Shown: positions 5,361 to 9,396 of the stretch, in pieces
Layout of the letters: each line of letters begins with the position of its first letter
How positions within the stretch are numbered: the stretch's first letter is position 1
From: an uncultured archaeon
GTDB lineage: Archaea > Asgardarchaeota > Thorarchaeia > Thorarchaeales > Thorarchaeaceae
DNA length: 27,972 bases
Direction: 5' to 3'
NCBI GenBank assembly: GCA_964610875.1
Contig: CAZSWP010000046.1
Location: 1 to 27,972, forward strand
Program-made: the position numbers and the translations under genes
Notes under the pieces: generated by a model
The model's database searches: none
Told to the model about the DNA's origin: nothing
Seen by the model: the letters and a program-made list of their open reading frames with translations, nothing else

Positions 5361-5392
5361 TTGTGTTTCTTTCAAATTCGTTTCACGTCCTC

Positions 5393-5462
5393 AATTTCAG
5401 AATTACGAGAAAACTGGCGGCTTTGTCTAGTCCCAATTAGTGAGATCTCGTAATTTCAGAAT
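5393..5462. promoter_or_regulatory. overlapping direct and inverted repeats in a divergent intergenic region
   Basis: Direct repeat AATTTCAGAAT at 5393-5403 and 5452-5462. Inverted repeat AATTACGAGA (5401-5410) / TCTCGTAATT (5446-5455). Confidence 0.35.
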
Positions 5463-5573
5463 ATACTACTATTTTCATCCAATATAAACATCTTCCATTA
5501 TTGGAATGTCTATCTCCTCTCTCAGAATGGAATGCCAAAAAACATAAAACAATCATCGAAACAATAGGAAACC

Positions 5574-6137
5574 GTGGACACAATGGCGGGGGATAACAGT
5601 CCCACAGAAACAACCATTGGGACTTTCCTACTTGATGAGTTTCGTAGAGAGATTAAGGCCGAGATTGACCGCTGGAACACTATTGAGGACAAGGCAAACC
5701 GCACCTTCTCCTTCAGCTCCTCAGTCACAGCAATCCTCGTAGGGATATTCTCACTCGGGGAATCACTGGTGGAGCAAGGCATGCCGTCTTCACTCCTCTT
5801 GCCCTTTATCACCTCATACTGTATTGGCGTCCTCCTCTTTGCAGTATCAGCCGTCTTTGCCTTGAGAGCACTAGCAGTCGCACGGTACAAGAAGCCCTAT
5901 CTGAAACACTCACAGTCTGCCCTCACACTATACCTGTCAAGGACTGCAAAGGATGTAGAAGAAGAGCTGGTATCTATCTACGTAGGCTCACTGGAGTCCC
6001 TAATTGATAAGATTGAGACAAAGGCTGAGTCCGTGAAGTGGGCGCAATACATTGTCCTGCTTGCTGTCGCTTCCATCATTGTGTCGATGATATTCATTGT
6101 CGTAACCATGCTGGGATGGGTACCAACGGGAGTCTGA
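5574..6137 (+). CDS. 3-TM membrane protein resembling the Pycsar transmembrane effector family (PycTM/DUF5706-like)
   Basis: Pattern of N-terminal helix ending IEDKA, TM1, TM2 ending in ARYKKP, soluble helix, then ETKAESVKWA and TM3. The D-x-K-A and second K motifs match my recollection of PycTM-like proteins. Confidence 0.5.
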   Translation: MDTMAGDNSPTETTIGTFLLDEFRREIKAEIDRWNTIEDKANRTFSFSSSVTAILVGIFSLGESLVEQGMPSSLLLPFITSYCIGVLLFAVSAVFALRALAVARYKKPYLKHSQSALTLYLSRTAKDVEEELVSIYVGSLESLIDKIETKAESVKWAQYIVLLAVASIIVSMIFIVVTMLGWVPTGV

Positions 6138-6140
6138 TGG

Positions 6141-6737
6141 ATGATGAATGACAAAAAGAAGAGATACGTTGCTGACAGATATTCAAAGAGAACACAGAAG
6201 ACACTAGAAGAAGTGTGTAGAAGGTTAGCCAAGATAGAGACCTTAGTTTCAGATAAGGATAAGAAGCACAAAATCAAGCCATCAGAACACATCTACCTTG
6301 ACAGAGATGGAATAGTCCCTGAGGGTGAACATGACAAGACAGAATCCGTCTATCTTGGTACCTTTGATAACTTTCGAGAGTGGTGTCATGTACGCAGAGG
6401 CGTAGACATGGCCTCCGGAAGAGATGATGAGGACTCGGCTGGTCCACTCCCACAGTCTGACTTCAGAAGAGTTATTCGCGATTCAACGGTTGCAAAGATA
6501 GACCGCAGTAGGATAGCGAGACCAATCAGGCATTTTCCAAGACCTCGACCAACTTTTCCACGGTCACTAGGATTCATAATGAAACGTGCCATACAAGACT
6601 TTGCAAAATCAAACAACCTACAGGTAGGTAGCGACCTCTATGATGCACTCAACTATGAGATTCTCCATCTCATGGAACATGCCGCTTCCCGTGCAAAGGC
6701 AAACAAACGGAAGACGATCAAAGCATATGATTTCTAA
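6141..6737 (+). CDS. histone-fold protein (alpha3 / face-to-face-type fold at C-terminus) with long N-terminal extension
   Basis: Residues 145-198 FIMKRAIQDFAKSNNLQVGSDLYDALNYEILHLMEHAASRAKANKRKTIKAYDF carry the histone L2-alpha3 signature A..RA..N.RKTI...D and the short alpha1/alpha2 layout. Starts 3 nt after the upstream stop. Confidence 0.8.
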   Translation: MMNDKKKRYVADRYSKRTQKTLEEVCRRLAKIETLVSDKDKKHKIKPSEHIYLDRDGIVPEGEHDKTESVYLGTFDNFREWCHVRRGVDMASGRDDEDSAGPLPQSDFRRVIRDSTVAKIDRSRIARPIRHFPRPRPTFPRSLGFIMKRAIQDFAKSNNLQVGSDLYDALNYEILHLMEHAASRAKANKRKTIKAYDF

Positions 6738-6769: not shown

Positions 6770-7810
6770 CTACTTTGTCACCTTAAAGAGGCCTGCTGGA
6801 GTTGCTGTCTTGACTTGCTTTGCTCCGGCTTCCTTCGCCCATTGAATGAAGTGTTCCTTCTCAATTGCACCGTATGCACCTTCATTCAGAAGGATGTAGA
6901 GTTCGATATACGGGTCAAGCATAGGGATGAACGCTTCAGTACCAAAGAACAATCCATCGGGTTTCAGAACACGAATCATCTCTTTTGTGGCTCGTTCTGC
7001 ATCACACCAGTGAATCACCTGCGAGGTGTAGACGATATCAAAGAAATCATCCTCGAACGGTAAGTTATCTGCAGAGCCTTGCAGGTACTCTGGATGGAAA
7101 TCGCCCAGTTCCTCAATGACTTGTTTATCAACACCAAGATGACGTGCTGCGTACTGGACAAACTCGTCTTCAGCGATCTGCAACAGACCGGCGTCGTACT
7201 CCAAGGCGTAGAGATTGACGGGTCGGTCCGAATCAAATGCTCCTTCCTTGTAATAATAGCTCCAGATTGCAGCAGTCCCGATTCCACTTCCACAACCCAC
7301 ATCGAAAAAGGAACCTCTGTGTTTCAATGCGGAAGCATACTTGAACGCAGCCCGGCGTATCTGTTCATACATCTTCAGCTGCAGTGAGTCGTCCCAGTTG
7401 AAGAGATTCATATCATCTGAGAATGTTATGTAATGACCTCGCAGACGACTGGGAATTGCCTCAGCCGAGTCGGCTACAATCTCAGCCATTCCCTGTCCGA
7501 ACACTTCTGGGGGTTCAGCTGAGAACTCAGGCACAACCCCGTTCACCTTGTAAGCATATTCATGCTGTATCAGGATATCATCTTCGGCGAACACATCCAA
7601 CACTTTTGAGAGGTACTTCAGGTCCTCATAGCCAAAGTGGTCAGAGATATCTTGAAGAGTTCTTGGTTTTGTCAGGTAATCGAACAGTCCCTCTCGTCTG
7701 AGTATATTGACTGAGTTTGCACGATAGAAGTTCTTCAGTTCCGTCTTATGTCTACGGATATTTCCACCCAGTTTTAGTAGTTGTAACCATGCACCAATTA
7801 ATGAAGCCAT
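6770..7810 (-). CDS. class I SAM-dependent methyltransferase with N-terminal winged-helix/dimerisation domain
   Basis: Motif I FFDVGCGSG, ALEYD, GSADNLPFEDDFFDIV, EMIRVLKPDG. N-terminal GLFDYLTKPRTLQDISDHFG helix-turn-helix. SD GAGGTGA upstream. Confidence 0.88.
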   Translation of the reverse strand: MASLIGAWLQLLKLGGNIRRHKTELKNFYRANSVNILRREGLFDYLTKPRTLQDISDHFGYEDLKYLSKVLDVFAEDDILIQHEYAYKVNGVVPEFSAEPPEVFGQGMAEIVADSAEAIPSRLRGHYITFSDDMNLFNWDDSLQLKMYEQIRRAAFKYASALKHRGSFFDVGCGSGIGTAAIWSYYYKEGAFDSDRPVNLYALEYDAGLLQIAEDEFVQYAARHLGVDKQVIEELGDFHPEYLQGSADNLPFEDDFFDIVYTSQVIHWCDAERATKEMIRVLKPDGLFFGTEAFIPMLDPYIELYILLNEGAYGAIEKEHFIQWAKEAGAKQVKTATPAGLFKVTK

Positions 7811-7826
7811 GTTATCACCTCATAGG

Positions 7827-8753
7827 TTATCCTAAAATATTCCTTCGATTTACAAAATCCACCAGCTCAAAGACCTCTTTGTACCGAGAACAATATTTGT
7901 CTTCTAACACCTCAATGAGTGTAGTGTAGCCCCTCAGAAGAGGTCCAAGGATGTCTTTAGCGATAGGAAATCTTCTTGCAGTACGTTCGACAATACTAGG
8001 TATCCGTTCTTCAAAGGGAGTCTGAAACTTGGCAAAGAGCATATCCGCATTCAGGATCTGTTCGAGAATTGATGAGGAAACCTCGTCATCTAACTCTAGA
8101 ATGCGAAAGACAAGATTCAGAATCCTACTTCTGGGGACAATACTATCCTCGGACTCTTCGACAATGAGCGGAGCGACTGACTGAAATTTCTCAATCATTA
8201 CACCATCTATAAAACTCAGACACAGAACGCGAGTGTCAGAACTCCAGCAGTAGATGTCAAGGTCAGCAAACTGAACCTTCAGTGGTTGCGGTAGTTCTGT
8301 ATAGATACAAGCTGCCTCCTCAAGACGGTTCAAGACATGATAAGACATCTCTGTAGCATTCAGATTCTTCGGGCTTACGATATCCACAACCCATCTGTGT
8401 TTCCTGCTTATCAGGAAGGCGAATTGCAGGTGTTCCAGTTGTTTAGTTATGGGTGTGTCTTCATGATAGACCCAATAATCAGGTGTACTCTCTGTAACTG
8501 TGTCAAGCTTCTCAAGTGGTTCTATGTATGCATCTCTATGCCCACGGAAGAACCCCATCTGGTCAACAATCACTGAATTGTAGTGACGTTCATGATCAGT
8601 ATCATGATAGACACGAAAGGTCGTCAATTTCATCCCGAAAAAGTCATCGTGATCGCTCTGCGAGATGAAGGTTTCTGAATCTTTTAGGTCGAGGGCGATC
8701 TCCGCACCACATACTCTACATGCAAACTTGGTAACAGTTCGTGTTAGTGTCAT
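7827..8753 (-). CDS. hypothetical protein with N-terminal CxxC...H...H Zn-binding module and possible longin-like central domain
   Basis: FACRVCG...RVYH...ERHYNSVIVDQMGFFRGH. Central beta/alpha pattern. SD AGGAG upstream; 19-bp gap to the GTPase gene. Confidence 0.6.
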   Translation of the reverse strand: MTLTRTVTKFACRVCGAEIALDLKDSETFISQSDHDDFFGMKLTTFRVYHDTDHERHYNSVIVDQMGFFRGHRDAYIEPLEKLDTVTESTPDYWVYHEDTPITKQLEHLQFAFLISRKHRWVVDIVSPKNLNATEMSYHVLNRLEEAACIYTELPQPLKVQFADLDIYCWSSDTRVLCLSFIDGVMIEKFQSVAPLIVEESEDSIVPRSRILNLVFRILELDDEVSSSILEQILNADMLFAKFQTPFEERIPSIVERTARRFPIAKDILGPLLRGYTTLIEVLEDKYCSRYKEVFELVDFVNRRNILG

Positions 8754-8772
8754 TCTTTTGGATTCTCCTTGG

Positions 8773-9396
8773 TCATTTAGTAGCTATGTATTCAACAAGC
8801 CAGTCCTTCAGGTTATTCACACCTTGACCATCCAGGCAGCTGATCTCAAAATATGCCTCAGCAAGAGGTTCCGACTTCATGAATTGCTCAACCAGACCCG
8901 GGTCAATACTGCGGTCTAAGTCACTCTTGTTCATAATGAGGACGAAGCGTAGTGATTTACTAGGGTTCTCTACATATTGTGATTTGACGATTGACGCCCA
9001 GTCTCGCAAGTCCAGTAGTGATTGTAGATTATCTGCTGCAAAGAGAAGTAGAACAAGGTCTACACCTTTGATAGCAATATCACTGAGGTCTCTCAGTGCA
9101 TGAATAGGTGCATCGAGCTGTCCTGCAACATCCACCATCAAAAATACTCCTTTAGAACCTGTTCCCCCAATTCGCTCGACACCAATGGTCTCTAGATTAA
9201 TGAACGGAGTTCGATGATACGCAGAAACAGAATCTGACTCGGCTAATGGTTCACCCTTTTGTAGGGTTCTAACAAGTGTGGTCTTACCCACAGCTCCAGA
9301 ACCAGCTACTAAGACTTTGATAACACCTAGCTTCCTCTCGTTAGTACTCACTGATAGTTCACTCTCTTGCGATGAGGTTCTTGTTGTGTTAGCCAT
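8773..9396 (-). CDS. Ras/Rab-like small GTPase
   Basis: G1 GSGAVGKTT, G2 YHRT, G3 DVAGQ, G4 NKSD, G5 EISC. No C-terminal prenylation motif. Confidence 0.92.
   Translation of the reverse strand: MANTTRTSSQESELSVSTNERKLGVIKVLVAGSGAVGKTTLVRTLQKGEPLAESDSVSAYHRTPFINLETIGVERIGGTGSKGVFLMVDVAGQLDAPIHALRDLSDIAIKGVDLVLLLFAADNLQSLLDLRDWASIVKSQYVENPSKSLRFVLIMNKSDLDRSIDPGLVEQFMKSEPLAEAYFEISCLDGQGVNNLKDWLVEYIATK

Follow-up and report, generated by a model that had tools for sequence, protein, structure and literature searches.

A predicted face-to-face histone fold joined to a previously unannotated domain and encoded next to a putative PycTM-like membrane protein in a thorarchaeal genome

The fusion gene and its upstream neighbour

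The DNA analysed here, referred to as the window, is a stretch of 27,972 nucleotides (contig CAZSWP010000046.1, assembly GCA_964610875.1) from an uncultured archaeon of the Thorarchaeaceae, a family of the Asgardarchaeota. On its forward strand an open reading frame (ORF) of 198 codons plus stop (positions 6141-6737) encodes a protein with three predicted parts: an N-terminal domain (N-domain), a linker and a histone fold of the face-to-face (FtF) type. Immediately upstream on the same strand lies the gene of a probably PycTM-like membrane protein of about 184 amino acids with three transmembrane (TM) segments (5583-6137; the start is placed at ATG 5583, the listed ORF beginning at GTG 5574). 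An initial annotation of this DNA had described the first gene as a tailed or degenerate-doublet histone variant and had not mentioned its conserved upstream partner.

Residues 144-198 (6570-6737 including the stop codon) are assigned to the FtF, or alpha3-truncated, histone fold from sequence matches to the PDB, an AlphaFold2 (AF2) model, Foldseek and signature residues. The defining features of FtF histones are a truncated alpha3 of 3-4 residues, an alpha2 shorter than that of nucleosomal histones and R41, N45, R47, T49 and D54 of D4GZE0, whose chain ends at residue 55 (Schwab et al. 2024, PMC11390915). In the window protein R184, N188, R190, T192 and D197, followed by the terminal F198, have an identical spacing (R-x3-N-x-R-x-T-x4-D-x-COOH), all five signature residues being kept. 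The full-length AF2 model predicts alpha1 at residues 148-157, alpha2 at 164-187 (24 residues) and alpha3 at 195-197 (3 residues), with pLDDT values (predicted local distance difference test) of 88-96. The closest solved structure by sequence is HTkC of Thermococcus kodakarensis (9F2C_A, E 3.5e-4), followed by HLp of Leptospira perolatii (9QT0_A); the modelled histone part overlays both with a root-mean-square deviation of 1.1 Å, at TM-scores of 0.89 for HLp (9QT0) and 0.86 for HTkC (9F2C), and the Foldseek probability is 1.00 for these two and for HBb. Histone matches in Pfam and NCBIfam stay below threshold (CBFD_NFYB_HMF, E 0.026; Histone, 0.03; DUF1931, 0.02; archaea_histone, 0.027). Residues ~140-198 are 49-64% identical to free-standing histones of 56-68 amino acids, and the basic residues K148, R149, K155, R190 and K191 are conserved. 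The positions and sequence strings quoted in the initial annotation are all correct, the FtF type named by it is recovered, and structure prediction, which it had proposed as a check, returns a histone fold.

The histone-like part begins at G144/F145 (6570/6573) with the alpha1 motif GFIMKRAIQDF (from residue 144), the counterpart of SFIVKKAIQ or YVVKKAVQ in free-standing relatives; the internal methionine M147 (codon 6579) lies within this conserved start, and no ATG, GTG or TTG occurs just 5' of the fold. The 144 codons upstream are free of stops, for which the chance probability is about 3e-4 (about 5.5% stop codons being expected from base composition). A second candidate start, ATG 6408, corresponds to M90 and has the hexamer GAGGCG six bases upstream. 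Since a start at M90 would split the N-domain and one at M147 would cut into alpha1, itself conserved, the start of this genuine and, by prediction, translated ORF is placed at the first ATG pair (6141/6144).

An exhaustive phmmer search of 1.84 billion representatives retrieved three homologues with the full architecture, which come from independent metagenomes: P0002 (E 7e-31; 260 amino acids, two histone folds), P0003 (E 9e-19; 207 amino acids) and P0007 (E 8e-11; 213 amino acids). The extension is conserved in all three as well as in proteins that lack a histone. Together with the stop-free stretch, these homologues uphold the view of the initial annotation that the extension is probably translated and no artefact; its placement of the first histone motif ahead of the internal methionine agrees with the position of M147 inside alpha1, and the two findings on which it had offered to be refuted, homologues made only of a ~55-residue fold or a prediction without a histone fold, are not what was obtained. 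The alternative start that it had suggested at ATG 6408 is a partial case: the codon and the GAGGCG are there, but translation from this point would cut the N-domain in two.

The two genes meet at the sequence TGA-TGG-ATG-ATG (6135-6146, forward strand), where the stop codon of the membrane-protein gene stands 3 nt ahead of the fusion ATG in the same frame, and only a single TGA and one Trp codon separate the two ORFs. At other loci the TM and N-domain genes overlap by 4-17 nt or stand 8 nt apart, in different frames; for this reason they are regarded as separate, translationally coupled genes, and the shared frame in the window looks coincidental. A read-through fusion of the membrane protein with the histone across the TGA was considered and rejected on the same ground. 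A homologous TM gene is found immediately 5' of the N-domain gene in the window and at L024, L027, L030, L032 and L033, with C-terminal halves of the TM protein at L024, L030, L032 and L033; the membrane protein is 42% identical over 186 amino acids (E 5e-52) to its equivalent in a second genome of the phylum, G368. The linkage thus holds at 6 of the 7 loci with readable upstream DNA, a count that leaves out P0002 and P0007, whose adjacent upstream genes (154 and 175 amino acids) could not be read. The intergenic region between the membrane-protein gene and a divergent subtilase gene (5376-5582), which carries ATATAAA at about 5483, is presumed to be the promoter region of the two-gene unit.

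The N-domain, its exchangeable C-termini and the histone relatives

The N-domain spans residues 1-124 (6141-6512, forward strand), with a conserved core from about residue 10 to 124, as delimited by a 14-member alignment and the AF2 model. The model arranges it as a helix, four short strands, a second helix, a G-S-I-x-P motif and a long helix; predicted alone, it reaches a pLDDT of 80.6 (about 90 across residues 10-90) and a predicted TM-score of 0.67. Six homologues match residues ~6-129 and carry no histone fold (P0004, P0016, P0021, P0025, P0029 and P0038), and four more members of the alignment were taken from the contigs of homologues. C26, L29, Y52 and C82 are invariant throughout, and the G-S-I-x-P motif with its amphipathic helix is common to members with and without a histone. 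A third cysteine, at position 37, is found in all members except the window protein, which has a serine.

Searches for known relatives of this region returned nothing: the N-domain has no family match in Pfam, NCBIfam or PADLOC, its fold searches remained at noise level (Foldseek against the PDB, best E 1.6; VIA-align against 48,161 chains, best Z 3.2; ESM Atlas, best TM-score 0.34), and an ESM Atlas feature search gave no usable match. A word-index homology search with the whole protein, the N-domain profile and the membrane protein recovered only the query or known members. Pattern scans with the window protein in genome contigs, and with a tighter N-domain alignment in metagenome contigs and IMG/VR, found nothing, which is weak evidence of absence for scans that used one or two short peptide patterns. 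No paper describing the N-domain or its pairing with a membrane protein was found in the literature searched. Residues ~10-124 are accordingly proposed, from alignment and model, to be an autonomous and previously unannotated alpha/beta domain of about 115 amino acids, which is not a histone.

What follows the N-domain differs from one family member to another. An FtF histone is found in the window protein, P0003 and P0007, and an FtF doublet in P0002; P0021 and P0029 have a Lys-rich tail, P0038 and the products of L030:1225-1599 and L032:836-1183 an acidic tail, P0016 a CFI-box-CTERM (NF041770, E 1e-11) and the product of L032:1196-1855 a beta-rich domain of about 100 amino acids. Because the C-termini vary in this way across the family, the N-domain appears as the constant part and the histone as an exchangeable module. 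At L030:223-1948 and L032:203-1858, three or four N-domain paralogues stand in tandem after one TM gene; each copy has a C-terminus of its own (CFI-box-CTERM, acidic tail, beta-rich domain or Lys-rich tail), a layout that resembles a polymorphic cassette. The family is small (at least 14 members) and has five kinds of C-terminal module, which makes it tractable for structure and interaction work.

The histone part itself has close relatives in the same genome, namely two free-standing FtF paralogues of 65 amino acids (L002:1498-1692, with a MAKKK tail) and 56 amino acids (L003:1501-1668, untailed). They are 49-52% identical to window residues ~140-198; unlike the fusion, they start at alpha1 or a few residues ahead of it, and they are of a common kind, 23 of the 24 other genomes of the family that were searched having only short histones that match residues ~140-198, whereas the fusion is rare. 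The closest relatives of the paralogues are recorded from metagenome-assembled genomes of Candidatus Thorarchaeota, in keeping with the Asgard setting given to the histone in the initial annotation. A tree of the histone folds (56 columns) is unresolved: the fused folds do not form one clade, although a single origin is still compatible with it, and the fused fold of the window is placed with the tailed 'MMVGSD.YDA.N' type with weak support (80/88). The single clear nucleosomal-type histone of the genome is encoded elsewhere (G000:C14:24110-24292, forward strand; PF00808, 51.7 bits) and may carry an N-terminal tail, to judge from an open frame of 119 codons.

The probable PycTM-like membrane protein, distribution and genomic context

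Compared directly with the PADLOC PycTM profile, the membrane protein of the window gives E 0.044 over nearly its whole length, and it has no match to Pfam PF18967. The same genome contains a bona fide PycTM / 2TM effector gene of 179 codons (G000:C4:239-775, locus L035, reverse strand; PADLOC PycTM 1.4e-24, PF18967 above cut-off), and hhalign of the two proteins gives E 5e-4 with a probability of 31%. When a profile of the TM family was run against all six frames of the genome, only the membrane protein itself and this bona fide PycTM protein were found (E 0.002). The same profile retrieved more distant homologues from 400 genomes of the phylum (E 1e-9 to 5e-17), which in turn match PADLOC PycTM along the full length of the model at E values down to 1.3e-7; in addition, the ESM Atlas feature neighbours of the membrane protein include a cluster in which 10% of the members have PF18967. 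It is therefore probable, as far as profile comparison can tell, that the membrane protein belongs to a PycTM-like group, whose characterised members are pore formers of Pycsar. PycTM effectors, which cyclic pyrimidines activate, kill through membrane disruption in abortive infection (PMC11224242).

The PycTM gene at L035 stands at a contig end, where its downstream partner is cut off. At five loci in four other Asgard genomes, the distant TM homologues (L121:1459-2001, L122:54-578 and L126:314-820 on the forward strand, L123:1498-2004 and L124:1495-2025 on the reverse strand) adjoin genes of a small Cys/His-rich protein (L121:997-1449, L122:604-1092 and L126:847-1173, forward; L123:795-1457 and L124:1026-1466, reverse), and not an N-domain gene. 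The Cys/His-rich protein has the motif CxxC...Y.Y.C..C....C....C...H.GH and a weak zf-B_box match (E 0.0017). In an hhalign comparison of the N-domain with these B-box-like partners, 24 columns are aligned (E 0.0016, probability 16%) and the first CxxCG knuckle falls on the C37 region; the N-domain may be a zinc-less derivative, a relation that is put forward here as a lead only.

Of the 400 genomes of the phylum, two have a clear N-domain: G368 and the genome to which the window belongs. Next to the pair, on the reverse strand (6770-9396), lies an operon for a small GTPase, a 308-residue protein and an S-adenosylmethionine-dependent methyltransferase, which is conserved in a related genome, G007 (L117:8625-11171, reverse strand), with identities of 52%, 45% and 58%, respectively. 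In G007 the operon is kept without the TM/N-domain pair and is followed by other small ORFs; since the DNA 3' of the methyltransferase is entirely different in the two genomes, the pair appears to occupy a variable region. Genes of conflict-related families occur at other loci: the true alpha3-histone doublet of P0002 is flanked on its contig (JGI 3300042731) by SLFN_AlbA_2 and HEPN_AbiV genes, and a TIR_2 gene is found at L031. In the window, positions 1709-2200 give a weak HEPN match (E 0.007). Rarity and context are thus suggestive of an accessory, conflict-type module.

Possible roles and relation to known systems

On balance, the window protein appears to be a three-part component of a rare, accessory two-gene unit that would couple a DNA-binding histone to a PycTM-like membrane effector, probably in a system of the conflict type. 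By analogy with HTkC and with HLp, whose tetramers wrap about 60 bp of DNA (PMC12701072), the histone part would oligomerise into dimers or tetramers, the FtF tetramer being a torus of two dimers, and bind or wrap DNA non-specifically, and the basic linker would make further contacts with DNA in the manner of the MAKKK tails on the free-standing paralogues. The N-domain would be the constant module that docks on the membrane protein or regulates it; the variable C-terminal module would supply an input or a cargo, in this case DNA binding, and the membrane effector would in this way be coupled to DNA or to chromatin state. The likeliest setting for such a unit would be a defence or abortive-infection system without a cyclase.

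A more specific version of this proposal is doubtful as it stands: the histone fold would act as sensor or bait and the N-domain protein would restrain a PycTM-like pore former, until engagement of the C-terminal module frees the pore and leads to abortive infection. Engagement would mean either that the histone binds invading DNA or that the histone, basic or acidic tails are hit by viral anti-chromatin factors. If true, this would amount to a histone-based immune sensor, of which no example of such a kind was found in the literature searched, and to a cyclase-independent control in which a domain of new fold governs PycTM-type effectors.

Several observations weigh against the coupling of histone and membrane effector. 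The direct similarity between the membrane protein and PycTM is below threshold, and the claim of homology rests on transitive matches. The pairing of the two genes is not universal, since on the P0003 contig the 236 nt available upstream contain no TM gene, and the unreadable neighbours of P0002 and P0007 leave two of the fusions outside the linkage count. The link between N-domain and membrane protein is supported neither by an experiment nor by a prediction above its mark; when their complex was modelled, no answer was obtained (score 0.00, the mark being 0.32), which counts neither way. The window copy, without Cys37, could be functionally drifted. Finally, a defence-island context is suggestive in only about three loci, and in the window the neighbours are a subtilase gene and the methyltransferase operon. 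We put a role in defence or abortive infection ahead of a plain membrane tether, and the latter ahead of a function for a mobile element.

As a housekeeping tether between chromatin and membrane, the unit would have no part in conflict: the TM protein would anchor the N-domain protein, and the histone would attach the chromosome, for segregation or nucleoid organisation. The evidence from linkage and architecture applies equally to this explanation, a DNA-binding module beside a membrane protein fits tethering, and histones of the RdgC type are always in an operon with a TM protein of unknown kind (PMC11390915, supplementary table 2). Such a role is nevertheless unlikely, given an N-domain found in only two of the 400 genomes of the phylum, a pair missing from the syntenic site in G007, a membrane protein that groups with pore-forming effectors, and a C-terminal module whose place is freely taken by a CFI-box, a beta-rich domain or acidic tails, none of which would bind DNA.

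Less probable again is that the genes belong to a virus or another mobile element, the holin- or PycTM-like membrane protein and a DNA-condensing histone serving the element's genome or lysis. The patchy distribution and variable region agree with it, as do weak matches of the TM protein to holin families (E 0.07-0.1), the numerous small ORFs for TM and Zn-ribbon proteins, of unknown function, at L030 and L031, and the fact that alpha3 histones are known in phages; against it, the pattern scan retrieved no relative from IMG/VR, no capsid, terminase or integrase gene is seen around the pair in the window, and the linker DNA has no second copy in the genome.

The initial annotation had read the protein as a histone with a tail or as a degenerate doublet, and had linked it to the question of how histone tails arose in Asgard archaea; this interpretation turns on the region ahead of alpha1. 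The linker proper (residues 125-143; 6513-6569, forward strand) is Arg/Pro-rich and basic, disordered in the model and not conserved in sequence among the fusions; the Arg/Pro stretch spans residues 122-142, residues 120-140 are the only ones below a pLDDT of 50 in the full-length model, and the corresponding linkers of P0002, P0003 and P0007 vary in length and sequence, remaining Pro/basic-rich throughout. A basic, disordered segment of about 20 residues directly ahead of alpha1 is therefore present as the initial annotation had described it, and it has a parallel in the short MAKKK tails of free-standing Thorarchaeota paralogues; but it accounts for only ~20 of the 143 extra residues, about 115 of which would form the folded alpha/beta domain, found also in histone-less proteins. 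The second alpha1-L1 motif that had been seen at PLPQSDFRRVIRDSTVAKID (residues 102-121) does not hold either: no histone profile matches residues 1-143, and the stretch aligns to the G-S-I-x-P and helix motif of histone-less proteins and is modelled as the conserved last helix of the domain (105-124). A degenerate doublet is likewise not what the modelled domain resembles, although the family does include a true doublet in P0002.

As to the origin of tails, the Asgard tailed histones discussed for eukaryogenesis, of the HLoB / HMpB type, combine a nucleosomal fold whose alpha3 is full-length with a disordered, Lys-rich N-terminal tail, unlike the truncated alpha3 and ~20-residue Arg/Pro disorder of the window protein. 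Since the fold is of the FtF and not the nucleosomal type, its bearing on that question is weak, and the tempting link to eukaryotic histone tails is corrected here as unsupported. A tailed or doublet variant is very improbable, and the extension is better explained, from alignment and model, as a domain fusion, neither a eukaryote-like tail nor a degenerate second fold. As a separate observation, a 197-residue protein from a 1-kb metagenome contig (P0049, L127:281-874) contains three repeats of about 45 amino acids with AKLDRSRLTEPILH(F/Y)S, which resemble AKIDRSRIARPIRHFP in the window linker (residues 115-136; E 9e-4, three stretches); this may be chance. A derivation of the linker from repeated or mobile DNA, which this borderline match had suggested, was set aside because its DNA is unique in the genome, and the P0049 contig gives no context.

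Hardly credible, finally, is an ORF-calling artefact, in which only a histone of ~52 (from M147) or 109 (from M90) amino acids would be made and the upstream frame would be chance or a dead remnant: the GAGGCG ahead of ATG 6408, the presence of short histones only in all 35 related genomes with a match and the loss of the near-invariant Cys37 could be cited for it, but they stand against the 144 stop-free codons, the start sites that would bisect the N-domain or fall inside alpha1, and an extension whose whole length is conserved as protein in no fewer than 13 others, including three with the same fusion.

The two-gene unit of histone fusion and PycTM-like protein can be compared with known systems from both of its sides. 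It resembles Pycsar in the size of the PycTM effector, in the three-TM layout and in the transitive profile similarity; it differs in having an N-domain protein as partner and in a direct similarity to PycTM that stays under the threshold. It is not taken for a Pycsar system because no cyclase gene is adjacent, the neighbours being the subtilase and methyltransferase genes, and no class III cyclase (PF00211) was found in the 95%-complete genome. Should the two proteins act jointly, this would represent a cyclase-less wiring of PycTM-like effectors.

On the histone side, the window protein shares with HTkC and HLp (9QT0-2) the fold, a 3-residue alpha3, a shortened alpha2, the RxTxxxxD motif, the R/N residues of the tetramer interface and a chain that stops one residue past the Asp. 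Unlike it, FtF histones are stand-alone proteins of 55-70 amino acids with short tails at most, the archaeal ones being generally untailed (PMC11390915); the window protein has an N-terminal extension of 143 residues with a predicted separate folded domain, and its gene is tied to that of a membrane protein.

Prokaryotic histones have been sorted into 17 published categories (Schwab et al. 2024, PMC11390915), none of which describes a fusion with the N-domain. The nearest parallels are minor alpha3-histone categories with a globular N-terminal domain, the Rab GTPase histones of Lokiarchaeota, which are also Asgard-specific, and the bacterial ZZ histones (PMC11390915). The N-domain, in contrast, belongs with neither GTPases nor ZZ fingers and has no recognised family or fold; no Ras, Roc or ZZ match is found in the window protein or nine homologues, even at E up to 1. 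The RdgC histones (Schwab et al. 2024) are similar only in their constant operon association with the gene of an unknown TM protein; they have a C-terminal coiled coil and an operon with an RdgC-like protein. With the window protein, the 17 categories would gain an eighteenth architecture, in which an alpha3 histone from an Asgard archaeon is joined to a domain without recognisable family or fold and genetically tied to a putative PycTM-type membrane protein; if the pair works together, the histone fold would here serve not as a building block of chromatin but as a DNA-binding module that can be exchanged, within a system that is accessory and possibly antiviral.

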